Below are positions 184 through 20,046 of a stretch of DNA of 32,000 bases, one piece after another. The DNA comes from Candidatus Saccharimonadota bacterium. GTDB lineage: Bacteria > Pseudomonadota > Gammaproteobacteria > Enterobacterales > Enterobacteriaceae. Below the pieces are notes generated by a model. It was not told the DNA's origin, made no database searches, and saw only the letters and a list, made by a program, of their open reading frames with translations. Location: positions 1-32,000 of the forward strand of contig CP188088.1 of NCBI GenBank assembly GCA_049942965.1, in the 5' to 3' direction. Position numbers and translations under genes: made by a program. Every line of letters starts with the position of its first letter. Positions within the stretch are counted from its first letter, which is position 1.

Positions 184-247
184 TGTGGATAACTATGTTT
201 AACCATTGATAAATAAAGCTTTTTTAATGTGGATTAACTGTGTATAA
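184..247 (-). promoter_or_regulatory. Cluster of three same-orientation DnaA-box-like 9-mers (TGTGGATAA 184-192, TGTGGATTA 228-236, TGTGTATAA 239-247; the reverse complements match TTATNCACA)
   Basis: Read directly from the sequence. Two boxes fit the TTATNCACA consensus perfectly (TTATCCACA, TTATACACA) and one has a single mismatch. All lie within 64 bp of an intergenic spacer upstream of yfgM. Function not demonstrated. Confidence 0.3.
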
Positions 248-403
248 CTAATTAATGTTTTCCTAAGTTTTATAAGTTATTAACAGATGAAATTTTTTTA
301 TTTTTTTATTTTTTTTTTGTCTCTTTCTTTTTAATATAAAAATAAAATGTATAATATAAAATATTATTAAAATGAAAAAATAACATATAGAAAGAATAAC
401 AAA

Positions 404-1035
404 ATGAAAAATATAATTTTCTTTATCAAAAAATATTTGCTTTCTAAAATGAACAGTAATGAAAAAAAAACACACTTAATAATTATGTTAATACTATCCA
501 TAGTTATATTAGTAACTACATTCATATGCCTAAAAAACTCAGAAAGAAAAAACAGTATTCTTGAAAACAAGAATCTATCAAATAATCAATATGAAAAAAT
601 AATCAAAAATTCGGATATAAAAAAAAAAAACATGAAATAACGAAATATATATTAAAAAATAAAAATGCATATTCTCTTTTAATAGGATTAAAACTATCAA
701 AAGAATACATAAAAAATAATGAACTAAGTCAATCTGAAGAAATACTAAATATACTAAAAGACATAACAAACGAAGAGAATTTAAAAAATATAATTAAATT
801 TAGAATACTTGATTTAGAAATTGAGCAAAAAGAAATTAACAAAGCAAAAAAAACAATTTCTGAAATTAAAAAAAAAGGTTGGGAAAATGTTTTTATGGAT
901 AAACAAGGTGACATATATTGTTTAGAAAATAAAAAAAAACTAGCTACAATTACTTGGAAAAGAAGCTTAAAATATCAAATTGATAATAAATCAAAAGAAA
1001 TAATAAAGATGAAAATACAAAAATTAAAAAAATAA
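404..1035 (+). pseudogene. yfgM: yfgM-like ancillary SecYEG translocon subunit (TPR-like, N-terminal TM anchor), interrupted by a frameshift in an A12 tract (619-630)
   Basis: ORF 404-640 encodes an N-terminal TM segment (THLIIMLILSIVILVTTFICL) and stops just after the A12 run. The other frame, open from 595 to the TAA at 1033-1035, reads ...KNKNAYSLLIGLKLSKEYIKNNELSQSEEIL...IKKKGWENVFMDKQGDIY...IIKMKIQKLKK. This aligns with E. coli YfgM (ENKNTYGALASLELAQQFVDKNELEKAA...IKGEGWAAIVADLRGEAL...MMQMKINNL). It sits upstream of der as in E. coli. One extra A restores a ~210-aa product. Confidence 0.8.
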
Positions 1036-2475: not shown

Positions 2476-2811
2476 TTACTTTTCTTTTACATAATTTAAT
2501 GAATAAAAAGGTATTCTTATTTCTAGATTTTCATTGCCTATTTTAGCTTGACAGGCTAATCTACTAAATTCTGTAAGACCCCAAGCTTTATCTAATAAAT
2601 CTTCTTCTTTTTCTTCCATTTTAGAAAGTGAAGAAAATCCTTTTTCTACTATACAATGACAAGTACTACAAGCACATGATTTTTCACAAGCATGATCCAT
2701 ATTAATATTATGAGATAAGGCAACGTCTAATATAGTTTCTCCAGACTTTACAAAAATTATTTTTCCTTTGGGTAATATTACTTTATGTGGTAAAAAAACT
2801 ATTTTAATCAC
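2476..2811 (-). CDS. fdx: ISC-system [2Fe-2S] ferredoxin
   Basis: 111-aa ORF with the adrenodoxin-type cysteine pattern CEKSCACSTCHC...C. It lies directly downstream of hscA, as in the E. coli isc operon. Confidence 0.93.
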   Translation of the reverse strand: MIKIVFLPHKVILPKGKIIFVKSGETILDVALSHNINMDHACEKSCACSTCHCIVEKGFSSLSKMEEKEEDLLDKAWGLTEFSRLACQAKIGNENLEIRIPFYSLNYVKEK

Positions 2812-2927: not shown

Positions 2928-4409
2928 TTAAATATTTTCATTATCAATGGTATTGATTATAACATTTTTTTTATTTTTGCTAATTTTATCTATTGCAGTA
3001 ACATGCAATAATCCATCATTATCGATTTTAAAATTAACAAAAATTCTATTGACTCCAGCTAATTGAGGAGTTATTCCTGATAATGAAAAACAAAATAAAG
3101 AACGGCAATTTTTGACTAATTTATCTTCTCCCTGTAAGATATGTATCTTAATTGAAGTTTGATTATCTTGAAAATTAGTAAAAACTTTGGTACATTCTGT
3201 TGGTAATTTTTCATTTTTTGTAATTATTTTTTCAACCATCCCTCCTATTACTTCAATTCCTAAAGATAAATGCAATACATCAATTAATAGAAATTTTTTT
3301 TGTTTATTTATATTTTCAGAAAGATTTTCAGAATGAATAGCAGATCCGATTACAACAGCTTCTTCTGGGTTAACAAAAAAAAGTGGTTCTTTGTTAAAAA
3401 ATAAAGCTATCTTTTCTCGAATAAGAGGAATATAAGTAGAACCACCTACTAATATAATTTCATTAATTTCATTTATCTGAACTTCAATAGATATTAATGC
3501 TTTTTTGCAAATTATAAGTGTTTTTTCTACTAATTTATTAATCAATTGATTAAATTCATTTCTAGTAATTTTTACTGAAAAATCTTGAATTTTAAATATT
3601 ACTTTTTCTTTAAAAGTTAGTTCTTTCTTTAAAGATTTTATTTTTAAAAATAGCTCTGCTTTAGTTTTTGAGTTAGTAAAAAATAAATGATATTTTTTAT
3701 ATATATATTTTAATAATAAAAAATCAAAATCATCTCCACCTAGATGGGAATTTCCAGTTGTAGTTAATACTTCAAAAACTTCATTTTCTAATTTTAATAA
3801 AGAAAAATCAAAAGTACCTCCTCCTAAATCATAAACAGCAACTAGTTCTGTTTTTTTTAGATTACATCCATACGCAACAGCAGCTGCAGTAGGTTCATTT
3901 AATAATCGTACATTTTTTAATCCAGCTAAAAAAGCCGATTGTTTAATTTCTTTTCTTTGTTTATTATCAAAATATGCTGGAACAGTTATTACTGAATGAT
4001 CAATTTCTTGTTTGAAAAAGTTTATTGCTCTTTCTTTCAAAATATATAAAATTTGACTAACAATACAAGAAACTTGTATATATCCTTGAATTGTTTTAAT
4101 ACAAATTTCATTGTTCTTGTTTTTTTTATACAAATACGGTAATTTAGGGTATAAAATTTTTATTTTCTTTTCTGATAATCCTACTAGTCTTTTTATAGAA
4201 AAAATTGTATTTTCTGAGTCTTGTTTATAGTTTTTTACTGCATTCCAACCAACTAAAATTTTATTTTTTTTATACTGAACAACTGAAGGCAATAATTTCT
4301 TACCATTTTCATCTTTTAAAATTTGAATTTTATTACAGAAATATCTTGCAACTAAGGAATTTGTCGTCCCTAAATCAAATCCAATACACAATTTTTTTTT
4401 TTTAGACAT
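2928..4409 (-). CDS. hscA: Fe-S cluster assembly Hsp70 chaperone HscA, C-terminally short (493 aa)
   Basis: Hsp70 signatures are present (GFDLGTTNS, VITVPAYF, DLGGGTFD, ILVGGSTYIP). Operon context is hscB-hscA-fdx. The protein ends just after the beta-sandwich (DNDGLLHVTAIDK...), about 120 aa shorter than E. coli HscA (616 aa). Confidence 0.93.
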   Translation of the reverse strand: MSKKKKLCIGFDLGTTNSLVARYFCNKIQILKDENGKKLLPSVVQYKKNKILVGWNAVKNYKQDSENTIFSIKRLVGLSEKKIKILYPKLPYLYKKNKNNEICIKTIQGYIQVSCIVSQILYILKERAINFFKQEIDHSVITVPAYFDNKQRKEIKQSAFLAGLKNVRLLNEPTAAAVAYGCNLKKTELVAVYDLGGGTFDFSLLKLENEVFEVLTTTGNSHLGGDDFDFLLLKYIYKKYHLFFTNSKTKAELFLKIKSLKKELTFKEKVIFKIQDFSVKITRNEFNQLINKLVEKTLIICKKALISIEVQINEINEIILVGGSTYIPLIREKIALFFNKEPLFFVNPEEAVVIGSAIHSENLSENINKQKKFLLIDVLHLSLGIEVIGGMVEKIITKNEKLPTECTKVFTNFQDNQTSIKIHILQGEDKLVKNCRSLFCFSLSGITPQLAGVNRIFVNFKIDNDGLLHVTAIDKISKNKKNVIINTIDNENI

Positions 4410-4435
4410 ATAAATACCTTAATTTGTTAAGTTAT

Positions 4436-4960
4436 TTATTTATTAAAATTACTAATTTCTTGAATTGCAGAATGTTTTATTTTCTTTAAAAAAAATAATT
4501 TATTTAATATAATCACAGCAATTATCCATTCTTTATTTATAAATTTTTTTTCAATTTTATGCAAATAAGAAAAAATTAAATCGTCAATTTTTTTTAAAAA
4601 AAAACGTATTGTTTTTTCGTTTTTTTTAGAAGATTTTTTAATATATTCCAATTCTTCACACAACTTCATATGTTTTTTTAAAAAATTTATATCAAATGGA
4701 ATATTTTTTTTTTCTTTTTCAAAATTTAAATAATTTATACGTATATAATATTCGGCTCTTTTTATAGGATCAATCAAAATTTTATAAGCATGATTAATTT
4801 TAATGGATTTGTTCATTAAGTTGGATTTTTTTATTTGATCTTCATCAATACAAAAGTCGGGATGATATTTTTTTTGAAGATCATAAAAATTTTTTGTTAA
4901 CTTTTTTTTATCTAGTTGAAATGAAACAGGTAAATTAAAAATTTTAAAATAATTTTTCAT
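4436..4960 (-). CDS. hscB: Fe-S cluster co-chaperone HscB (J-domain protein)
   Basis: 174-aa ORF with an N-terminal J domain (NYFKIFNLP...LQKKYHPD, HPD motif). It lies immediately upstream of hscA. Confidence 0.9.
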   Translation of the reverse strand: MKNYFKIFNLPVSFQLDKKKLTKNFYDLQKKYHPDFCIDEDQIKKSNLMNKSIKINHAYKILIDPIKRAEYYIRINYLNFEKEKKNIPFDINFLKKHMKLCEELEYIKKSSKKNEKTIRFFLKKIDDLIFSYLHKIEKKFINKEWIIAVIILNKLFFLKKIKHSAIQEISNFNK

Positions 4961-5011
4961 AAGTTTTATATTTTCTTGTTAAAGATTTTAAGACAATTTT
5001 TTTTTTATTTA

Positions 5012-7171
5012 ATGTCAGTCATGGGATCGATCTCTCATCGTACTTGCATCTATGATCAGTAGTAGAACTGACTGGCATCTATGTCAGTCATGGGATCGAT
5101 CTCTCATCGTACTTGCATCTTGATCAGTAGTAGAACTGACTGGCATCTATGTCAGTCATGGGATCGATCTCTCATCGTACTTGCATCTATGATCAGTAGT
5201 AGAACTGACTGGCATCTATGTCAGTCATGGGATCGATCTCTCATCGTACTTGCATCTATGATCAGTAGTAGAACTGACTGGCATCTATGTCAGTCATGGG
5301 ATCGATCTCTCATCGTACTTGCATCTATGATCAGTAGTAGAACTGACTGGCATCTATGTCAGTCATGGGATCGATCTCTCATCGTACTTGCATCTATGAT
5401 CAGTAGTAGAACTGACTGGCATCTATGTCAGTCATGGGATCGATCTCTCATCGTACTTGCATCTATGATCAGTAGTAGAACTGACTGGCATCTATGTCAG
5501 TCATGGGATCGATCTCTCATCGTACTTGCATCTATGATCAGTAGTAGAACTGACTGGCATCTATGTCAGTCATGGGATCGATCTCTCATCGTACTTGCAT
5601 CTATGATCAGTAGTAGAACTGACTGGCATCTATGTCAGTCATGGGGATCTCTCATCGTACTTGCATCTATGATCAGTAGTAGAACTGACTGGCATCTATG
5701 TCAGTCATGGGATGATCTCTCATCGTACTTGCATCTATGATCAGTAGTAGAACTGACTGGCATCTATGTCAGTCATGGGATGATCTCTCATCGTACTTGC
5801 ATCTATGATCAGTAGTAGAACTGACTGGCATCTATGTCAGTCATGGGATCGATCTCTCATCGTACTTGCATCTATGATCAGTAGTAGAACTGACTGGCAT
5901 CTATGTCAGTCATGGGATCGATCTCTCATCGTACTTGCATCTATGATCAGTAGTAGAACTGACTGGCATCTATGTCAGTCATGGGATCGATCTCTCATCG
6001 TACTTGCATCTATGATCAGTAGTAGAACTGTACTTGCATCTATGATCAGTAGTAGAACTGACTGGCATCTATGTCAGTCATGGGATCGATCTCTCATCGT
6101 ACTTGCATCTATGATCAGTAGTAGAACTGACTGGCATCTATGTCAGTCATGGGATCGATCTCTCATCGTACTTGCATCTATGATCAGTAGTAGAACTGAC
6201 TGGCATCTATGTCAGTCATGGGATCGATCTCTCATCGTACTTGCATCTATGATCAGTAGTAGAACTGACTGGCATCTATGTCAGTCATGGGATCGATCTC
6301 TCATCGTACTTGCATCTATGATCAGTAGTAGAACTGACTGGCATCTATGTCAGTCATGGGATGATCTCTCATCGTACTTGCATCTATGATCAGTAGTAGA
6401 ACTGACTGGCATCTATGTCAGTCATGGGATCGATCTCTCATCGTACTTGCATCTATGATCAGTAGTAGAACTGACTGGCATCTATGTCAGTCATGGGAAT
6501 CTCTCATCGTACTTGCATCTATGATCAGTAGTAGAACTGACTGGCATCTATGTCAGTCATGGGATCGATCTCTCATCGTACTTGCATCTATGATCAGTAG
6601 TAGAACTGACTGGCATCTATGTCAGTCATGGGATCGATCTCTCATCGTACTTGCATCTATGATCAGTAGTAGAACTGACTGGCATCTATGTCAGTCATGG
6701 GATCGATCTCTCATCGTACTTGCATCTATGATCAGTAGTAGAACTGACTGGCATCTATGTCAGTCATGGGATCGATCTCTCATCGTACTTGCATCTATGA
6801 TCAGTAGTAGAACTGACTGGCATCTATGTCAGTCATGGGATCGATCTCTCATCGTACTTGCATCTATGATCAGTAGTAGAACTGACTGGCATCTATGTCA
6901 GTCATGGGATCGATCTCTCATCGTACTTGCATCTATGATCAGTAGTAGAACTGACTGGCATCTATGTCAGTCATGGGATCGATCTCTCATCGTACTTGCA
7001 TCTATGATCAGTAGTAGAACTGACTGGCATCTATGTCAGTCATGGGATCGATCTCTCATCGTACTTACTGACTGGCATCTATGTCAGTCATGGGATCGAT
7101 CTCTCATCGTACTTGCATCTATGATCAGTAGTAGAACTGACTGGCATCTATGTCAGTCATGGGATCGATCT
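5012..7171. repeat. Tandem array of ~31 copies of a 69-bp unit (tgtcagtcatgggatcgatctctcatcgtacttgcatctatgatcagtagtagaactgactggcatcta)
   Basis: Period measured directly: tgtcag starts at 5013 and 5082, 69 bp apart. The unit has 30/69 G+C, against A/T-dominated flanks. Copies are identical apart from a handful of indels. There are no spacers, so it is not CRISPR-like. The three ORF-track entries 5081-5740, 5805-6389 and 6386-7189 are read-through of the repeat. Confidence 0.97.
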
Positions 7172-7326
7172 AACAATACTTCTTATTAAATAAATAGAAA
7201 AATTTTAACCAAAGTATTTTTAAAGTTTTTTAAAAATTCTAAAGTTCATCATAAATATTTTTATGAACATTTTAGAAATATATCTAAATTTCATTTAATT
7301 TAAAAAATTTCAATAAATTGTTAAAT

Positions 7327-7755
7327 TTATGATTTAGAATCAAATTGTTGGTTTTGTTTTATTTTTTTATTTTTGTAATCTAAAATTGCTGCTTTAATTG
7401 CATCTTCTGCTAAAATAGAACAATGTATCTTAACAGGAGGTAAATCCAATTCTTGGGCTATATTAACATTTTTTATATTTTTAGCTTCCTTCAAAGATTT
7501 ACCTTTAACTAATTCAGTAGCTAATGAACTAGCTGCAATAGCGGAACCACATCCATATGTTTTAAATTTTGCATCTTCAATTATACCTTCATTATTAACT
7601 TTAATTTGTAATTTCATAACATCACCACAAGAAGGAGCACCAACCAAACCATTTCCAATGTTTATATCTTTATTGGAATTAATATCATCTTCCGAAAAAG
7701 ATCCTACATTTCTAGGATTTTCATAGTGATCTATTACTTTTTTACTATATGACAT
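7327..7755 (-). CDS. iscU: Fe-S cluster assembly scaffold IscU
   Basis: 142-aa ORF with MSYSKKVIDHYENPRNVG, GAPSCGDVMKLQI, YGCGSAIASS and KIHCS motifs. It lies directly downstream of iscS. Confidence 0.95.
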   Translation of the reverse strand: MSYSKKVIDHYENPRNVGSFSEDDINSNKDINIGNGLVGAPSCGDVMKLQIKVNNEGIIEDAKFKTYGCGSAIAASSLATELVKGKSLKEAKNIKNVNIAQELDLPPVKIHCSILAEDAIKAAILDYKNKKIKQNQQFDSKS

Positions 7756-7781: not shown

Positions 7782-9002
7782 TTATTTATTCCATTTTATT
7801 GATTTTAAATCTATTCCTGATTTAAACATTTCCCATAATGGAGATAATTTACGTAAACGAACAATTGCTGAACGAACCGATTTGATTGTATAATCAATTT
7901 CTTCTTCAGTAGTAAACTTTCCTAAAGAAAATCTAATCGAACTATGTGCAAGTTCATCTTTTATGCCCATAGCTCTTAATACGTACGATGGCTCTAAACT
8001 AGTAGATGTACAAGCTGATCCAGACGAAACAGCTAAGTTTTTCAAGGCCATAATTAAAGATTCTCCTTCTACATAATTAAAACTAATATTTAAAATATGA
8101 GGAGAAGTAATTTCAAAACTGCCATTTAAATAAACTTCTTCTATGTCTTTTAAACCATTCCACAATTTATTTTTTAAAAAATTCAATTTTTTATATTCCA
8201 TAACAAAATTAATTTTTGCAAGTCGAAAAGCTTCTCCCATTCCTACAATTTGATGAACAGGTAAAGTTCCAGATCTCATTCCTCTTTCATGACCACCTCC
8301 ATGAATTTGAGCTGATAATCGTATTCTTTTAGGACTTCGACTTACATAAAGAGCTCCAATTCCTTTAGGACCATATATTTTATGTCCTGAAAAAGACATT
8401 AATCCTATATTTATTTTTTTTAAATTAATGTCAATTTTACCAATAGCTTGTGTTGCATCAACATGTAATACAACATTTTTTTCGTTACATATTTCTGATA
8501 TTTCGTTTATCTTTTGTATTACTCCTGTTTCATTATTCACAAACATAATTGAGACAAGAATTGTTTCCTTTGAGATTTTTTCTTCTATTTCTTTAGGATT
8601 AATTAATCCATTAGAGTCAGGATTAACATATGTAACTTTGAAACTATTTTTTTCTAAAAATCTACAAGTATCTAACACAGATTTATGTTCTGTATTACTA
8701 GTAATAATGTGTTTTCCTTTTTTTTGATAAAAATCACAGTATCCTTTTATAGCTAAATTATTTGATTCTGTAGCTCCAGAAGTAAATATTATTTCTCTAG
8801 GATCTGCATTAATTAATTGAGCTATAATATTTCTTGATTCGTCAACAGACTCTTCAGCTTTCCAGCCTAATACATGAGAACGTGATGCTGCATTTCCAAA
8901 AGTTCCATCTAAAGTTAAATATTTTATCATTTTTTTTACTATTAATGGATCCATGGGTGTTGTTGCTGCGTAATCTAAATATATTGGATTTTTATAATTC
9001 AA
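7782..9002 (-). CDS. iscS: Cysteine desulfurase IscS (PLP-dependent)
   Basis: 406-aa ORF with [29 protein letters not shown] (PLP-lysine region) and SSGSACTS (active-site Cys loop). Confidence 0.96.
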
Positions 9003-9441: not shown

Positions 9442-11304
9442 ATGCCAAGATATAGATCTTTTACTACCACGCATGGGAAGAATATGACTGGTGCAAGAGC
9501 ATTATGGAAAGCTACAGGAATGAAAGATTCAGATTTTGAAAAGCCAATTATAGCTGTTGTAAATTCTTTCACTGAATTTGTACCTGGTCATATTCATTTA
9601 AAAAAACTAGGATCATTAGTATCAAATGAAATAAAAGTTTGTGGAGGTGTTGCTAAAGAATTTAATACAATAGCTATTGATGACGGAATTGCTATGGGAC
9701 ATTCCGGAATGATGTATTCATTGCCATCTAGAGAATTAATTGCAGATTCAGTAGAATATATGATTAATGCACATTGTGCAGATGCTATGGTTTGTATATC
9801 AAATTGTGATAAAATTACTCCTGGAATGTTAATGGCATCATTACGATTAAATATTCCAACTGTATTTGTTTCTGGCGGTCCAATGGAAGCTGGAATACAA
9901 GAACACAAAAATAAAAAAATTAATTTAGTTGATGCAATTGAAATAAGTGTAAAAAATGTAAATAATAATGAAATTTCTCAAATAGAAAATTCTGCATGCC
10001 CTACTTGTGGGTCTTGTTCAGGATTATTTACTGCTAATTCGATGAATTGTTTAACTGAAGCACTGGGATTGTCTTTGCCTGGAAATGGAACATTATTAGC
10101 TACACACAAGGATAGAAAAGCACTATTCTTACAAGCAGGTCAAATTATTGTTCAAATAGCTAAATCTTGGTATGAAGAAAATAATCCGAATGTTTTACCT
10201 AGAAACATAGCTTGTGAATCTTCATTTAAAAATGCAATGACAGTTGATATTGCAATGGGAGGTTCCACTAATACTGTTTTACATTTATTAGCTGCTGCAA
10301 AAGAAGGAAAAATAAATTTTAATCTTTCTGATATAGATACATTATCTAAAAAAATTCCACACATTTGTAAAATTGCTCCTAGTAGTAATAAATTTCATAT
10401 GGAAGACATGCATAGAGCTGGTGGGGTTATGCGTATTTTAGGTGAATTGAATAAAGACAAGTTAATTGATACTTCTGTTAAAAATGTTTTAGGTATTACT
10501 TTGAAAGAAACTCTTAAAATATATAATATTTCTGATACAAAAAACAAAAATGTGATTAATATGTTTTTATCAGGACCAGGAGGTTACAGAACTGTAGTTC
10601 CATTTTCTCAAAATTTTAAATGGAAATCGTTAGATAATGATTCTAAAAGAGGTTGTATACGTTCTGTTGAAAATTCATATAGTAAAGAAGGTGGTTTAGC
10701 TATTTTATTCGGAAACATAGCAAAAAATGGTTGCATTGTAAAAACAGCAGCAATAGAAAAAAAAAATTATGTATTTTTGGGAAAAGCTAAAGTATATGAT
10801 TCTCAAGAAGATGCTGTTTACGATATATTAAATCATAAAATTAGGTTTGGAGATGTTATAGTTATACGATATGAAGGACCGAAGGGTGGTCCTGGAATGC
10901 AAGAAATGTTGTATCCTACTACATATTTAAAATCTATGAAACTAGACAGACATTGTGCTTTAATCACTGATGGAAGATTTTCAGGAGGAACATCTGGCAT
11001 ATCTATTGGACATATATCACCAGAAGCTGCTGACGGTGGAGAAATTGCTTTAATAAAAAATGGAGACTTAATCAAAATTGATGTTCCAAATAGAACTATC
11101 AATTTAGAGATTTCAGAATTAGAACTTTTAAATAGAAAAAAATATGAAGATTCTAAAGAAGAAAACTCATATCTACCAAATAGAAAAAAAAGAACGATTT
11201 CGAATTCTCTAAAAATTTATTCTTTGTTAGTTACTAGTGCTGATAAAGGAGCTATAAGAGATATCAATAAATTAAACAGATTTCTGAAGGAAAAACAATT
11301 TTAA
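9442..11304 (+). CDS. ilvD: Dihydroxy-acid dehydratase
   Basis: 620-aa [25 protein letters not shown] matches the E. coli IlvD N-terminus. [22 protein letters not shown] and GPGMQEML motifs are present. Confidence 0.97.
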
Positions 11305-15341: not shown

Positions 15342-15415
15342 GGTGACTATAGCTCAGCAGGTAGAGCTCTGGATTGTGGTTCCAGTGGTCATGGGTTCGA
15401 TTCCCATTAGTCACC
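15342..15415 (+). tRNA. hisR: tRNA-His (anticodon GTG, with encoded G-1)
   Basis: GGTGACTATAGCTCAG... with an extra 5' G pairing to C73, anticodon stem CTGGA/TCCAG with loop TTGTGGT, T-arm ATGGGTTCGATTCCCAT. Close to E. coli hisR. Confidence 0.93.
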
Positions 15416-15475
15416 CAAAAATGTTTTTGTTTTTTTTATTATAAAATTCATAGATATTTAAATTATTTTACTGAA

Positions 15476-17040: not shown

Positions 17041-17525
17041 AGAAATTGAACAATATGCGTAATAAATTTATAATTATTATAAAAAATAATTTTTTTTTAT
17101 TTATATAAAAATTATATATTCATATAAGACTTATATCAAATAGAAATTTTCAGTGTTTTTTTATAGAAATAATGTTTTTTAAAAAAATAGATTTATATCT
17201 ATGTAAAAATTAATATAAGAACAACTTAATTAAGTTTTTTAATTATTATTTTTTTTAAAGTTAGTTTACTTATCCTTCTTAACGTACTAAATCCGATATA
17301 ATCGATTTTTATTTGTTTTTTTCAAAAATTCTTCATTTTAAATTCATTATTCACTAAATATTCATTATTATAAAAAAAAATTATTTTGATAATTATATTT
17401 TTATTTTTTTATATATTAAATAGACTTATCTATTATAATTATGATAATAGTTTTTTTATTTTTATTTTTAATTTTCAACATTATCTGTTTTTTATATAAT
17501 ATTTCTAAAATAGAAAATCATTATT

Positions 17526-17587
17526 AATGATCTTAATAAATATCTCTTAAAATAATGAATGATCTTAATAAATGTCTCTTAAAATAA
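17526..17587. repeat. Direct repeat, two 30-bp copies at a 32-bp period (aatgatcttaataaat[a/g]tctcttaaaataa)
   Basis: Copies at 17526-17555 and 17558-17587 differ at one position. They lie within the long non-coding region downstream of dapF. Confidence 0.6.
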
Positions 17588-18600
17588 AACAACTAAAATT
17601 AGGTTTACTTATTTTGATGAAAAAATAAATTTTAAACAGTTATTTCTTTGAAATATATACATATAAATAAAAAAATTATTAATAATTTTTTAGCAAGATT
17701 AATAAAAAAATATTTTATCTATTTATTTTTTAAATATTAATTTCATTAATTTTTTGATCATGTTCTTTTTTCAGCTCCATAGTACTTTCATTTTTACTTG
17801 TTATGTTAAATAGTTTAAATTACAAAAAATTAATTTAAAAAAATTTTTTTAAAAAATTAAATGTTGTATCTTAACAAGATATTTTTTTTTTAGTTTTGTT
17901 TTTCAGTAGATTAATTTGTTATATTTTATGTCAATCAATAAATTTTTATTAAAATTAAACTAGGTTATATTTTCTTTCCATACATATATTTTATTGAAGT
18001 TTATTTTTTTTATTAATTAATAGTTATAAATGATCATTTGATTTTTAATTTTAGTTATTTATTATTTCTTCATTTAATTTTTATTATTTGAGAGGTAGCT
18101 TTTTTTAGTTGTATTGTACTTTTTTGATTATTTATTAAATTAGTTTAGAATTCTTTTATTTTTTTTTTTAATTTTAATTATTTTATTTTTATTTTTTTAT
18201 TAGACTTAGAAGCACTTATGAAATTAGTTTATAACAATCTTGAAAAAATCAATAGTCACTTTTTACTATTTTATTGTTTGTTTCTTTACAATTTTTTTTG
18301 TTTTTTTTTGTTTTGAGTTTTTTAGAAAATTGATAATTTTAAAGTTTAAATTATTTCTTTTTTTAAAATGTACATTTCAATTAAAAAAGAATCAAATATC
18401 ACAAAAATAAGCTTTTAAATATTCTATTATTACTTAAATTTTTTCTTCATGATTTTTTTTATTTTATGAATAAGTTTTAAAAAAAGGTTTTATATATAAA
18501 AATACTATAATTAATATTCCTTTTATGATCTTGACTAAATAAGCAAATTAAAGTAAAAGAGAGATTATGTAGATTTATAAAAATAGGATTAATAATAAAT

Positions 18601-20046
18601 ATGTCATCAATTCTACCAAATGATAATATAAGAAGACTGATAGATAATACAAGCAATTTTCGTAATTTTTCCTCTACAAATATAGATAAAGAAAGATTAA
18701 TAAGAAAAGAAAATAACAAAGTTAATAATTTAGAACAAAAAACTAATTCTTCAGTTATTGTGGATGATAATTTTGTTCCTTCTGATAATTCATTAATTTA
18801 TTCTGAATCAAATCCAACAAAAAATATAAAAAATGAAAATGTTGATTCTAACGACGTTACTTTAAATTTAGAGAATTTTTTAGTTCATTTTAATTCTTTT
18901 TTGTCTAAAGATATTATGAAACAAGGTTTTGAAAATATTTTTGATAACATTATTAATACTGATTTTATTAAAAATAATAACATTTTAGAAAATTTAGATT
19001 TACAAAATACAGACCAAACAAACACTAACGATAGTGATAAAATTAATAAAAATGATACTACTGTTGTTACTAATAATAATAGTTCTTTCAAAAATATTGA
19101 TAAACCAGTTTTCCACGCTAATATTGATGTATTATCGCATAATAAACCTCCTGTTGAGAAACAAGAAATTTCTGATAATAAAAACCAAAAAGAACAAATT
19201 AACAATAATAAAGATTCTATTACTAAGGACAAAAAAGAAGAAGATAAATTTAGTTTTCATACAAAATATGATGTTTTCTTAAAAGATCATGTTTCAATAG
19301 AAGAAATTAAAGACTATGTAAATAAAAATCATCGAGGAAGAATAAACAAAAACTATGATCATGATACTGAATTAACTGATGATTTTCCTGTTGATGATTC
19401 GTTGTCTAAATGTCATAATGATCAAGATCTAACAAGTGTTCAAAATTATTTTTTAGATAAGAATTCTAGTTTTAATACAAAAGATGGCTATTTACCTAAT
19501 TTTTCATTTGGGGATCCTAATGAAATTAGTTGGAAAGGACTTCGTTCATTAAATTTTTCAAAAGATAATTTAGATTATTCTAAAAAATTATATGAAAGAT
19601 ATGAAGGTCTAAAAGGTACTAGCTCGTTAGTTCCTGGATTCATGAATGATTATCAAGATGTAGATTTGAAAGTTAGTCATTATTTAGTACCAAATGAAAC
19701 AAGAGAAGAATTGTTTGAAAAATTTAAAAAATTACTTCCTGATTTAGAAACCAGACAAATGGTATCTACATATGCTAATCAAAAAATACTAGAACCTGCA
19801 TATTTAAAATTGACAAGTTTTGCTCCTGGTTTATTCCGTTATCCTCCAAAAAACATTTCTTTTTCTTATGAAGTTGAACCAACTCATCATGGTTTCTTAA
19901 GACTAATTGTTACTAATAAAACTAAGTTACATATTGTTAATTCAAATAATGAAGACAAAGATTTAACATTAGGTGTAAGAGCTTCAGTAATGTTAAGTAA
20001 ACATAGAATTCCTTGTATAAAATTTTTATATTATTTGCAAAAATAA
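18601..20046 (+). CDS. Hypothetical protein, 481 aa, acidic N/D/S/T-rich N-terminal two-thirds plus a more globular-looking C-terminal ~190 aa; no family recognised
   Basis: This is the longest ORF in an otherwise non-coding 3.2-kb interval. A weak AGGA lies ~14 nt upstream of the ATG. The only competing ORFs are short low-complexity ones inside it. I recognise no conserved motifs, and coding status rests on ORF length in a stop-rich AT genome. Confidence 0.6.
   Translation: MSSILPNDNIRRLIDNTSNFRNFSSTNIDKERLIRKENNKVNNLEQKTNSSVIVDDNFVPSDNSLIYSESNPTKNIKNENVDSNDVTLNLENFLVHFNSFLSKDIMKQGFENIFDNIINTDFIKNNNILENLDLQNTDQTNTNDSDKINKNDTTVVTNNNSSFKNIDKPVFHANIDVLSHNKPPVEKQEISDNKNQKEQINNNKDSITKDKKEEDKFSFHTKYDVFLKDHVSIEEIKDYVNKNHRGRINKNYDHDTELTDDFPVDDSLSKCHNDQDLTSVQNYFLDKNSSFNTKDGYLPNFSFGDPNEISWKGLRSLNFSKDNLDYSKKLYERYEGLKGTSSLVPGFMNDYQDVDLKVSHYLVPNETREELFEKFKKLLPDLETRQMVSTYANQKILEPAYLKLTSFAPGLFRYPPKNISFSYEVEPTHHGFLRLIVTNKTKLHIVNSNNEDKDLTLGVRASVMLSKHRIPCIKFLYYLQK

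Follow-up and report, generated by a model that had tools for sequence, protein, structure and literature searches.

The interval between iscU and hscB in Buchnera aphidicola of Tetraneura akinire (Nanopore assembly CP188088) holds a tandem array, which is best read as an old minisatellite specific to the Buchnera of Tetraneura aphids. Its sequence is far more constant than that of neutral DNA, and for this reason the array is probably doing something. We give an even chance to the explanation that this lineage-specific minisatellite has been kept by selection as a reiterated recognition site.

Throughout the text, the window is the whole stretch of DNA analysed, 32 kb in length. The features referred to below are as follows.

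184..250, no strand: putative oriC DnaA-box cluster (TGTGGATAA, TGTGGATTA, TGTGTATAA), about 4.8 kb from the array; gidA is just beyond the window start
2476..2811, minus strand: fdx, the final gene of the cluster; 111 aa with a Fer2 domain
2928..4409, minus strand: hscA, 493 aa, truncated at the C terminus; it covers positions 2-498 of the 599 in the HSP70 profile
4436..4960, minus strand: hscB, 174 aa; 100% identity to HscB of Buchnera aphidicola (Tetraneura akinire)
4961..5011, minus strand: AT-rich spacer from the array to the hscB start codon, 51 nt; about 80% identity to the T. sorini spacer
5012..7171, no strand: tandem array, 31 full 69-nt units and a 22-nt terminal partial unit; 43% GC; 89 GATC sites
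5040..5054, minus strand: first of the invariant cores, of which each unit has one; plus strand GTACTTGCATCTATG, operon-sense strand CATAGATGCAAGTAC
5218..5286, plus strand: representative canonical unit, one of 23 identical copies; bipartite, with sub-repeats ACTTGCATCTATGATCAGT and ACTGGCATCTATGTCAGT, 29/40 nt apart
5972..6070, no strand: variant unit 15, lengthened to 99 nt by an internal duplication of 30 nt between the two sub-repeats
7033..7080, no strand: variant unit 30, shortened to 48 nt by a deletion of 21 nt at ACT microhomology
7150..7171, no strand: terminal partial unit on the iscU side; the junction of GTATTGTT with AGATCGATCCCATGAC (operon sense) is common to the sister strain and T. 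sorini
7172..7326, minus strand: AT-rich spacer from the iscU stop to the array, 155 nt, 12% GC; 85% identity to the T. sorini spacer
7327..7755, minus strand: iscU, 142 aa, NifU_N domain
7782..9002, minus strand: iscS, 406 aa; first gene of the cluster
15343..15416, plus strand: tRNA-His gene, possible source of the unit; its positions 5-65 are colinear with the plus strand of the unit

Structure and position of the array

The tandem array at 5012-7171 was detected by TRF with a period of 69 and matches of 98-99%. Splitting on the anchor ATGTCAGTCATGGG delimited 31 full units and the 22-nt partial unit at 7150-7171. Both results agree with an earlier sequence-only reading of this DNA, which had described about 31 head-to-tail copies of 69 bp with essentially no substitutions. 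We found that 23 of the 31 units are identical to the canonical unit, ATGTCAGTCATGGGATCGATCTCTCATCGTACTTGCATCTATGATCAGTAGTAGAACTGACTGGCATCT. The remaining eight are variants by indels only, and the number of base substitutions among the T. akinire units is zero. Besides the long unit 15 and the short unit 30, the variants include units 10, 11, 12, 20 and 22, with deletions of 1-3 nt in or near GATCGATC, and unit 2, with a deletion of 1 nt. Tandem repetition, without spacers, of a unit between 10 and 100 nt long (31 x 69 nt) places the locus among the minisatellites, or VNTRs.

The G+C content of the unit is 30/69. In 500-nt windows the GC fraction was 0.43 within the array versus 0.17-0.30 around it (the flanks have about 20%), as expected from the earlier description of a comparatively GC-rich unit in A/T surroundings. 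Elsewhere in the 32-kb window, TRF revealed no general proliferation of repeats.

The array has iscS, iscU, hscB, hscA, fdx and der as neighbours. The gene order of the minus-strand cluster (fdx, hscA, hscB, array, iscU, iscS) bears out its earlier placement between hscB and iscU. The same reading had called this position the iscA slot. By position this is correct, but not as a cause of the insertion: in the outgroup Buchnera of Eriosoma and Floraphis, the slot between iscU and hscB contains spacers of 60 and 118 bp only. Since these outgroups already lack iscA, the array did not replace it, and we rejected the idea of an iscA remnant as well. The checked ORFs of the window are housekeeping genes, except for a few that had no family match.

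The CP188088 record is a miniasm/Racon assembly of Nanopore reads polished with 75-bp reads (PMC12243488); because of this, the exact copy number and the small indels are uncertain, the latter possibly being residual read errors. The sequence-only reading had also considered an assembly or library artefact, and one could think of an adapter concatemer or a chimeric Nanopore consensus. The unit indeed looks 'hand-typed' (ACTGACTG, GATCGATC, AGTAGTAG), variation restricted to indels is typical for a Nanopore consensus, and polishing reads of 75 bp are unable to resolve a 69-bp repeat. However, independent assemblies from Illumina reads, from Nanopore reads and of a MAG all have contigs that end at the same two junctions, some 30 nt inside the array (Logan SRR33632138, Illumina; SRR32628560, Nanopore; MAG GCA_035718965.1; and many contigs of SRR7186xxx and SRR14373458). 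Both junctions are present in the Illumina-only and Nanopore-only assemblies of one sample, in unrelated samples and in the third-party MAG, while diverged homologous arrays occupy the same site in three other lineages. These observations refute an artefact of assembly, library or pipeline, to which we assign a negligible probability. The existence and position of the array are real; its copy number and small indels are approximate. Every short-read assembly of these genomes is broken at the array.

Related Buchnera and constraint on the unit

A comparison of the junctions in sister strains, which had been proposed in the sequence-only reading, was carried out and showed the array at the same slot with shared junctions. 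A close sister strain carries a homologous array between iscU and hscB with one fixed difference per unit from T. akinire, common to all four of the readable unit copies. In the Buchnera of T. sorini, the array is about 5.3 kb long (about 76 units) and has the same slot, the same iscU-side junction and four fixed differences; it contains 36 identical 69-mers and no substitution polymorphism. The Buchnera of T. ulmi has, in the same slot, an array with remodelled units of 38/76 nt that aligns colinearly with the related arrays across several units. At the orthologous iscU-hscB locus we thus count about 31 units for T. akinire and about 76 for T. sorini, while the T. ulmi record has at least 9 and a 20-N gap; these counts, taken from Nanopore or gapped assemblies, are approximate. 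With copy number ranging from at least 9 to about 76, any function of the array has to be dosage-tolerant. A further contig, P0010, was rejected as a new lineage, as it is a frameshifted Nanopore-read contig of T. sorini.

We conclude that the array arose once, after the split from the Eriosoma- and Floraphis-type lineages and before the split of T. ulmi, T. akinire and T. sorini, and that its junctions have been unchanged since. The suggestion of a very recent origin does not survive the finding of the array at the same slot in the Buchnera of T. sorini and T. ulmi. On the other hand, the suggestion that the array is actively homogenised or selected was supported both by species-specific fixed differences, a sign of concerted evolution, and by the retention of G/C sites beyond the neutral expectation. 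Zero substitutions were seen within the T. akinire or T. sorini arrays, compared with four fixed between these two and one fixed between T. akinire and its sister strain. Expansion, contraction and homogenisation would proceed by replication slippage or unequal sister-strand exchange, acting between units as well as between sub-repeats. Buchnera reportedly lacks RecA (Shigenobu et al. 2000).

For a neutral yardstick we used about 470 four-fold degenerate sites of six flanking genes, with the assumption of a stationary process. Among the four-fold sites occupied by G or C in T. akinire, 26 of 44 (59%) differ in T. sorini and 95% differ in T. ulmi; over all four-fold sites, T. ulmi differs from T. 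akinire at 25%. Within the unit, T. akinire and T. sorini are unlike at only 2 of the 30 G/C sites (binomial P = 2e-9 against 59%). In terms of all changes per unit, four were observed between these species versus about 21 expected, about five times fewer than at neutral sites. The AT-rich spacers adjoining the array have 80-85% identity between the same two species. The GC content of the array is 43%, 43% and 39% in three lineages, compared with 9% at the four-fold sites. T. akinire, the sister strain, T. sorini and T. ulmi all have the 15-nt core CATAGATGCAAGTAC without any change. The comparison of units covers these four lineages and five substitutions in total. Since a neutral consensus should track the per-site mutation rate, the difference between 2/30 and 59% rejects plain neutrality. 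Selection among genome copies in polyploid cells would leave the same footprint as functional selection at the level of the host.

Origin of the unit and competing readings

A blastn-short comparison of the unit with the rest of the window and with related loci gave chance matches of 9-14 nt only, one of which led to the comparison with tRNA-His. Read on the plus strand, the unit follows tRNA-His colinearly through the D arm, some of the anticodon arm, the variable loop and the T arm. For T. akinire, the colinear alignment score was 42, while dinucleotide shuffles scored 23.1 +/- 3.6 and 0 of 1000 reached 42; this comparison covered 5 of the 32 tRNAs of the genome. For the T. sorini unit, 5 of 500 shuffles reached the observed score, and for the T. 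ulmi unit the likeness was not significant. ARAGORN detected no tRNA in the array with default or relaxed (65% threshold) settings, and the Rfam model RF00005 gave no report at E <= 10 on a 173-nt stretch of it. The unit probably began as a fragment of a tRNA-His gene. In length, 69 nt, it is close to a tRNA. Arrays of tRNA genes, however, are sets of different tRNAs, whereas the copies here are identical fragments without an acceptor stem and without a cloverleaf.

The sequence-only reading had not recognised the unit as a member of any described repeat family, and this stands after searches of Rfam, plasmids, phages, E. coli genomes, metagenomes and proteins. Rfam searches of the window and of short stretches (gathering threshold and E <= 10) returned only chance matches to C/D-box snoRNAs, at 21 bits versus a threshold of 45. 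BLASTN of two to three units found no match in the PLSDB plasmids, the INPHARED phages or all complete E. coli genomes, and a scan for exact 24-mers found none in IMG/VR and the JGI metagenome contigs. The same scan of the GTDB genomes hit only the Buchnera of T. sorini and, in that complete genome, only this locus. Outside the array, neither the window nor the related loci compared contain the core motif. The absence of spacers, cas genes, transposase, terminal inverted repeats and target-site duplication, stated earlier, was the same on checking. We rejected a CRISPR array, as the units abut directly and no cas gene is among the checked ORFs of the 32-kb window. A mobile or foreign insert was also rejected: the window has no transposase-type ORF, there is no target-site duplication at the flanks (TTATTTAA before the array and AACAATAC after it), and no likeness to plasmids or phages was seen. 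The earlier suggestion of foreign DNA found no support here, with T. sorini Buchnera as the only GTDB match and the genome's own tRNA-His as the best likeness. The repeat is not mentioned in the genome announcement (PMC12243488) or in a related preprint, and we found no published description of the array in the searchable literature.

Direct reading showed stops in all three operon-sense frames of the unit, in agreement with the sequence-only reading, which missed that one plus-strand frame is open and yields a 23-aa repeat. One may then ask if the array encodes, on the plus strand, a protein with the repeat ...CQSWDRSLIVLASMISSRTDWHL..., its frame being broken only by Nanopore indel errors. 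The unit length (69 = 3 x 23) speaks for it, and so does a stop-free frame that is split by the 1-nt deletions into ORFs of 219, 194 and 267 aa. Yet one open frame among six is the chance expectation for a 69-nt unit at 43% GC, the changes from T. akinire to T. sorini in this frame are one synonymous and three non-synonymous, the 38-nt period of T. ulmi is not a multiple of 3 and has stops in every frame, and the repeat peptide has no homologue among 5.8 billion proteins. We regard coding as next to impossible. A reading at the level of RNA is quite unlikely: the units could be hairpins or processing sites of the isc-hsc mRNA that uncouple iscSU from hscBA-fdx in a REP/BIME-like manner, or a plus-strand transcript could give rise to tRNA-like small RNAs. 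Being inside an operon, the array is probably transcribed; a z-score of -3.4 was obtained for the plus-strand fold, tRNA-His aligns colinearly with the unit, and four of the five substitutions fall into loops of two hairpins (drawn by eye, post hoc). These two hairpins, however, prefer opposite strands; the z-scores of the sense strand are just -2.0 and -1.0; the RNAalifold covariation term is +1.69 (positive values being unfavourable), with one double change only and no covariation; and neither T. akinire nor T. sorini conserves the hairpin of T. ulmi. No Rfam family reached the threshold, and ARAGORN found nothing even when relaxed. The array has no terminator-like site. Promoter-like sites are fewer than expected from shuffles over the whole scanned region, and the sole match in the array is in the variant unit with the 21-nt deletion. 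Given the modest z-scores and the unfavourable covariation, a conserved RNA fold was rejected.

For a platform acting on DNA, the more specific version is an origin-proximal element that serves DnaA titration, SeqA/Dam sequestration or, like sopC or parS, as a centromere; we consider this unlikely. Three DnaA boxes, next to gidA, lie about 4.8 kb from the start of the array, and GATC occurs three times per unit, 89 times in the array. The T. ulmi unit has a perfect palindrome with 9-bp arms, TACTTGCAT-AG-ATGCAAGTA, inside 38-bp direct repeats. The sopC locus of the F plasmid is built of iterated direct repeats with an internal inverted repeat. As in sopC and iterons, the T. ulmi unit is a direct repeat of about 40 bp with a short inverted repeat, and the arrays have a conserved core of about 15 bp and copies in a single orientation. 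In contrast to those systems, no cognate ParB/SopB-like or Rep gene, nor any other gene of a partition protein, was found nearby, T. akinire and T. sorini have the palindrome in degenerate form, and the periods of 69 and 38 bp are not whole helical turns. Inspection of the unit showed no 9-mer similar to a DnaA box. Positions 1-1196 of the window (putative oriC) have no GATC, and outside the array GATC is found 61 times versus 57 expected; with no GATC in the putative oriC and a chance frequency elsewhere, a Dam/SeqA system at this origin is unlikely. Searching the literature on Dam/SeqA in Buchnera brought nothing useful. By eye, the motifs of IscR, DnaA boxes, IHF, sigma-32, sigma-54, boxA and CsrA (GGA) had no convincing match. 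The likeness of TGGGATCGA and TTGGATCGC to the I-sites of E. coli oriC is taken as a coincidence, because they are on opposite strands in T. akinire and T. ulmi.

The array may also be functionless or 'selfish': a chance duplication that persists by slippage. Its apparent constraint would then reflect biased turnover, or a better replication or retention of some of the many genome copies in a polyploid Buchnera cell, and neither symbiont nor host would benefit. Parallels would be the repeats of mitochondrial control regions and the GC-rich ori/rep arrays of yeast petite mtDNA. We think this possible, if doubtful. Sister species have copy numbers more than two-fold apart, a remodelling took the unit from 69 to 38/76 nt, the indel variants at microhomologies are typical of slippage, and no functional signal of a known type was found. 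The distance of the array to the DnaA-box cluster, 4.8 kb, makes an advantage in replication at least conceivable. On the other side of the balance, two G/C changes in 30 versus the 59% expected reject the plainly neutral form, and slippage alone has no obvious directional bias that would guard G/C bases. Deletion bias is strong in Buchnera and should have removed a useless block of 2-5 kb over the divergence of T. ulmi and T. akinire.

We prefer to see the unit as kept by purifying selection as a reiterated, sequence-specific recognition site. It would act neither as coding sequence nor as a conserved RNA fold, and could form a putative protein-binding platform either on DNA, 4.8 kb from oriC, or on the isc-hsc transcript. 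The core CATAGATGCAAGTAC does not vary, while the palindrome that surrounds it in T. ulmi has been retained by neither T. akinire nor T. sorini. We found no binding protein, promoter, terminator or known motif tied to the core. A tentative elaboration, which we hold to be rather less than probable, would make the array a cis-acting 'satellite' under selection, which started as a fragment of tRNA-His and was held GC-rich by selection through the Tetraneura radiation. It would be either an origin-proximal, reiterated recognition platform (for replication control, chromosome organisation, segregation or an advantage in replication or transmission among genome copies) or a reiterated recognition site on the isc-hsc transcript.

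Known systems and significance

Minisatellite (VNTR) loci occur in other endosymbionts, as in VNTR-105 and VNTR-141 of Wolbachia. These too are intergenic arrays with units of tens to about 140 bp, strain-variable copy number and homogenisation within a genome. The present array differs in being inside an operon and in its size, 2-5 kb or 0.4-1% of a 0.53-Mb genome. It also has twice the GC of the genome, a position conserved across species and a measurable purifying constraint. The intercistronic palindromic REP/BIME elements of Enterobacteria are likewise GC-rich relative to their surroundings, located between genes of one operon and provided with imperfect palindromes. However, REPs are dispersed over hundreds of loci in 1-12 copies, compared to one locus with 31-76 direct copies here, and RNAalifold found no conserved hairpin in the array.

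Repeats of animal mtDNA (including the repeat region of aphid mtDNA) and the ori/rep clusters of yeast mtDNA are of debated function, a replication advantage being one candidate. Those genomes are, like that of Buchnera, polyploid, AT-rich, non-recombining and maternally inherited, and they have lineage-specific concerted arrays, often near a replication origin and with tRNA-like or hairpin content. Here, on the other hand, we deal with a bacterial chromosome with a DnaA-dependent oriC and with an array within an operon, 4.8 kb from the DnaA boxes, for which a link to replication is hypothetical. In Portiera of Bemisia tabaci, 7-bp microsatellites spread over the genome were linked to the loss of replication/repair genes and to rearrangements (Sloan & Moran 2013, PMC3673631). 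The similarity is that there, too, an obligate endosymbiont of a hemipteran has tandem repeats in its enlarged intergenic regions (PMC3673631). The Portiera case differs from the single locus with a 69-nt unit described here, which has no accompanying general proliferation of repeats in the 32-kb window.

As a VNTR that evolves fast, the array could be of use in marking lineages of Tetraneura and of their symbionts. To our knowledge, Buchnera was previously thought to be essentially repeat-free; its genome is the textbook case of a static, deletion-prone, AT-driven genome without repeats. A tandem array of 2-5 kb that takes up 0.4-1% of the chromosome at twice the genome GC contradicts this picture. 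The array has held the same site while 95% of the neutral G/C sites changed, and it has evolved in concert without RecA. If the selected-satellite explanation is true, no functional satellite DNA would, as far as we have searched, have been described before in an obligate endosymbiont of insects. Either the array represents a new class of selected non-coding elements in reduced symbiont genomes, or selection among the genome copies of a polyploid symbiont cell can build and keep satellites, as in mitochondria. Either outcome bears on the workings of genome reduction.

Structure and setting of the array

The array at window 5012-7171 had a period of 69 nt with 98-99% matches (Tandem Repeats Finder). 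Cut at a 14-nt anchor, the sequence yielded 31 complete units and, at its end, a partial one of 22 nt; 23 units were identical and base substitutions were absent from all of them. The sequence-only reading, about 31 head-to-tail copies with practically no substitutions, was thus accurate. Indels were the sole kind of difference in the eight variant units.

Variant units of the array
Units 10, 11, 12, 20 and 22: 1-3-nt deletions within or adjoining GATCGATC
Unit 2: 1-nt deletion
Unit 15: 30-nt internal duplication
Unit 30: 21-nt deletion at ACT microhomology

All but one of the small deletions lay inside the GATCGATC motif (window 5632-5780 and 6347-6500). Nanopore basecalling that errs at GATC, possibly methylated, would leave such a pattern, which hints that the sites may be modified.

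The G+C content of the unit (30/69) stood out from its AT-rich surroundings, as had been noted: GC was 0.43 within the array compared to 0.17-0.30 around it in 500-nt windows. It had also been stated that every operon-sense (minus-strand) frame of the unit contains stops, which held for all three; the one open frame on the plus strand had been missed. The minus-strand order of the neighbouring genes, iscS, iscU, array, hscB, hscA and fdx, was as first described.

Genes around the array
7782-9002, minus strand, iscS
7327-7755, minus strand, iscU
4436-4960, minus strand, hscB
2928-4409, minus strand, hscA
2476-2811, minus strand, fdx
der, plus strand

Since rho is encoded within the window, an untranslated insert of 2-5 kb should be polar on hscBA-fdx, unless hscBA-fdx has its own promoter.

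The HscB of the window was 100% identical to HscB [Buchnera aphidicola (Tetraneura akinire)], and exact-protein look-ups led to contigs from SRR33632138 and SRR32628560, respectively an Illumina and a Nanopore run of strain CP188088 (PMC12243488). The CP188088 assembly was made with miniasm and Racon from R10.3/Guppy-4 reads and polished by Pilon with 75-bp pairs; repeats are mentioned neither in this genome announcement (PMC12243488) nor in a related preprint. Because 75-bp reads have no unique placement in a 69-bp repeat, the exact copy number and the small GATC-concentrated indels are approximate.

We examined Logan assemblies of the T. akinire sample, made from Illumina reads alone and from Nanopore reads alone, the third-party MAG GCA_035718965.1 (two contigs ending inside the array) and many contigs from SRR7186xxx and SRR14373458. 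All assemblies carrying the exact IscU or HscB/HscA protein ended ~30 nt inside the array, and the two junctions were the same throughout. A de Bruijn assembler breaks in this way at a genuine repeat. An assembly or library artefact, one of the options raised from the sequence, is contradicted by the recurrence of these junctions in independent Illumina, Nanopore and MAG assemblies and has a negligible probability; the array is real.

Arrays in related Buchnera

The lineage of the MAG and SRR7186xxx was a close sister of T. akinire Buchnera (98.9% nucleotide identity over six genes). Its unit had one difference (…GATGGCAGT… for …GATGCCAGT…), present in 4/4 readable copies. Among 185,579 GTDB species genomes, the exact unit 24-mer was found in one, that of T. 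sorini Buchnera (CP188087), at a single locus, where iscS-iscU are followed by an array of ~5.3 kb (~76 units) and then by hscB-hscA-fdx-der. One identical 69-mer accounted for 36 of these units, with no substitution polymorphism; the remaining units were indel-ridden, consistent with the 42x Nanopore coverage. The T. sorini consensus differed from the T. akinire unit at 4/69 positions, and the iscU-side junction was common to both.

In T. ulmi Buchnera (OZ060366.1) the iscU-hscB spacer was 528 bp long and held 38-nt units with a 32+44-nt variant, broken by a 20-N gap. Colinearity with the T. akinire array extended over several units, a 76-nt T. ulmi pair corresponding to one 69-nt unit. The gap (L015, the same chromosome, 9813-9832) in the public sequence makes the true array length of that genome uncertain; a short-read contig of the T. 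ulmi sample (L016) likewise begins at the array edge. The CATAGATGCAAGTAC block on the operon-sense strand, a 15-nt core in direct orientation, was invariant in 4/4 lineages, and CTACT and a GATCG element were likewise retained.

The iscU-hscB spacers of Eriosoma grossulariae and Floraphis meitanensis Buchnera (60 and 118 bp) contained no related sequence. Given these short spacers and the arrays in Tetraneura Buchnera, the array had a single origin in the Tetraneura lineage and has kept its position since, with variable copy number. It is therefore not very recent, as had been considered, homologous arrays occupying the same slot in T. sorini and T. ulmi. The suggestion that it fills the iscA slot was right as to the position between iscU and hscB; iscA was not displaced by it, being already missing from the outgroups.

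Several further features of this region were observed. The F. meitanensis spacer (locus L026, ~4385-4425) has a clean hairpin (AAACGTGTTGAAA…TTTCAACACGTTT), and an intercistronic stem-loop may have stood here before the Tetraneura array arose. Tetraneura Buchnera have an HscA with a truncated C terminus (499 aa in T. ulmi, 493 aa in both T. akinire and T. sorini), compared to 609-614 aa in Buchnera of E. grossulariae and of the Macrosiphini aphids compared; the window HscA (2928-4409, minus) covers HSP70 profile positions 2-498 of 599. The lineage that acquired the array appears also to have lost the helical lid of this chaperone. IscU (7327-7755, minus) has 142 aa in Tetraneura Buchnera vs 128-135 aa in Floraphis and Eriosoma Buchnera, with a lysine/asparagine-rich C-terminal tail past the NifU_N domain (…YKNKKIKQNQQFDSKS).

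Constraint on the unit and its possible source

Copies uniform inside each genome, together with fixed changes between genomes, show that the array is homogenised by concerted evolution. If this process were neutral, the consensus would be expected to change at the per-site mutation rate. The neutral yardstick came from the four-fold degenerate sites of six flanking genes, where G+C was 9%.

Four-fold degenerate sites differing from T. akinire
Sister strain: all sites 2.4%; no value for the G/C and A/T classes
T. sorini: all sites 13.6%; G/C in T. akinire 59% (26/44); A/T 8.9%
T. ulmi: all sites 24.6%; G/C in T. akinire 95%; A/T 17%

A neutral unit with 30 G/C sites would be expected to differ at ~21 positions between T. 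akinire and T. sorini; 4 differences were observed, just 2 of them at G/C sites (binomial P = 2e-9). The AT-rich spacers adjoining the array had only 85% and ~80% identity between the two. Unit GC was 43%, 43% and 39% in T. akinire, T. sorini and T. ulmi. Plain neutrality of the unit sequence is rejected: the unit is either under purifying selection or protected by some biased process. The proposal of an actively homogenised or selected array agrees with these counts and with the uniform copies and fixed differences.

A short BLAST match pointed to tRNA-His (window 15343-15416). The plus strand of the unit was colinear with tRNA-His positions 5-65 (D arm, part of the anticodon arm, variable loop and T arm), with no acceptor stem and no cloverleaf. 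The T. akinire unit scored 42, reached by 0/1000 dinucleotide shuffles (23.1 +/- 3.6, taking the best score over both strands of five of the 32 tRNAs in the genome); the remaining four of these five scored <=22. For T. sorini the score was 36, reached by 5/500 shuffles, and for T. ulmi the similarity was not significant. Derivation of the unit from a tRNA-His fragment is suggested by this alignment, though not proven.

Candidate roles of the array

A protein-coding repeat has next to no chance: the open plus-strand frame had 1 synonymous vs 3 non-synonymous changes from T. akinire to T. sorini, the 38-nt T. ulmi period is not divisible by three and each of its frames contains stops, and the repeat peptide had zero homologues among 5.8 billion proteins. 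An array of RNA elements is quite improbable. Fold z-scores were -2.0 (sense) and -3.4 (antisense) in T. akinire and -1.0 in T. sorini; the covariation term of RNAalifold over four lineages was unfavourable to a conserved fold, and Rfam yielded just sub-threshold C/D-box-like chance matches. The T. ulmi palindrome TACTTGCAT-AG-ATGCAAGTA was absent as a palindrome in T. akinire and T. sorini, where its right arm, part of the core, is kept. The array is neither a CRISPR array nor a mobile element, in line with the lack of such features noted before, and the earlier option of foreign DNA found no backing, the array not being recognisably foreign and having no match among plasmids, phages, E. coli genomes or JGI metagenome contigs. 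Nor, by the sequence scan, is it a promoter or terminator array.

Three DnaA-box-like 9-mers (TGTGGATAA, TGTGGATTA, TGTGTATAA) were located at window 184-250, and gidA begins just past the window start. The cluster is a probable oriC, so the array would start ~4.8 kb from it; isc-hsc transcription runs in the direction of this origin. GATC occurred three times per unit and 89 times in the array. A Dam/SeqA role found no support, as GATC was absent from the first 1.2 kb of the oriC region and at chance frequency outside the array (61 vs 57 expected). An origin-linked DNA element is unlikely.

Other parts of the window also drew attention. Between der and oriC, Buchnera of T. ulmi and Eriosoma have a gene for a TPR_21 protein of 203-208 aa; the sister MAG retains 132 + 78 aa, and the window (404-640, plus, and ~640-1080) just a 78-aa ORF that matched no family, probably a decaying pseudogene. 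Window 17041-18600, ~1.5 kb of 13-14% GC with no ORF >=100 aa and a 32-nt tandem duplication (17526-17587, 96% match), resembles an extended non-coding region or a defunct gene, in a genome that is compact elsewhere. The 481-aa ORF at 18601-20046 (plus) matched no NCBIfam or Pfam family at the cut-offs applied; it is a gene that evolves fast or has degenerated, or else an ORF that arose by chance in AT-rich DNA.

Tandem arrays as a kind of feature are already known, also in endosymbionts such as Wolbachia, with its VNTRs, and Portiera. Those of Portiera are 7-bp microsatellites (PMC3673631). The unit matched no described repeat family, as first thought; in the searchable literature we found no description of the array or of a comparable constrained GC-rich satellite in Buchnera.

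Buchnera lacks recA, so turnover of the array would proceed by RecA-independent slippage or unequal sister exchange, and the 30-nt duplication of unit 15 fits misaligned internal sub-repeats. A less probable reading that still deserves weight is a satellite that has no function or is 'selfish', and that may be favoured among the genome copies of a polyploid cell. Selection would act on the unit sequence itself and not through a fold or an encoded protein. The best reading, held with middling confidence, is a constrained, reiterated recognition site, which a protein may bind on the DNA or on the transcript.
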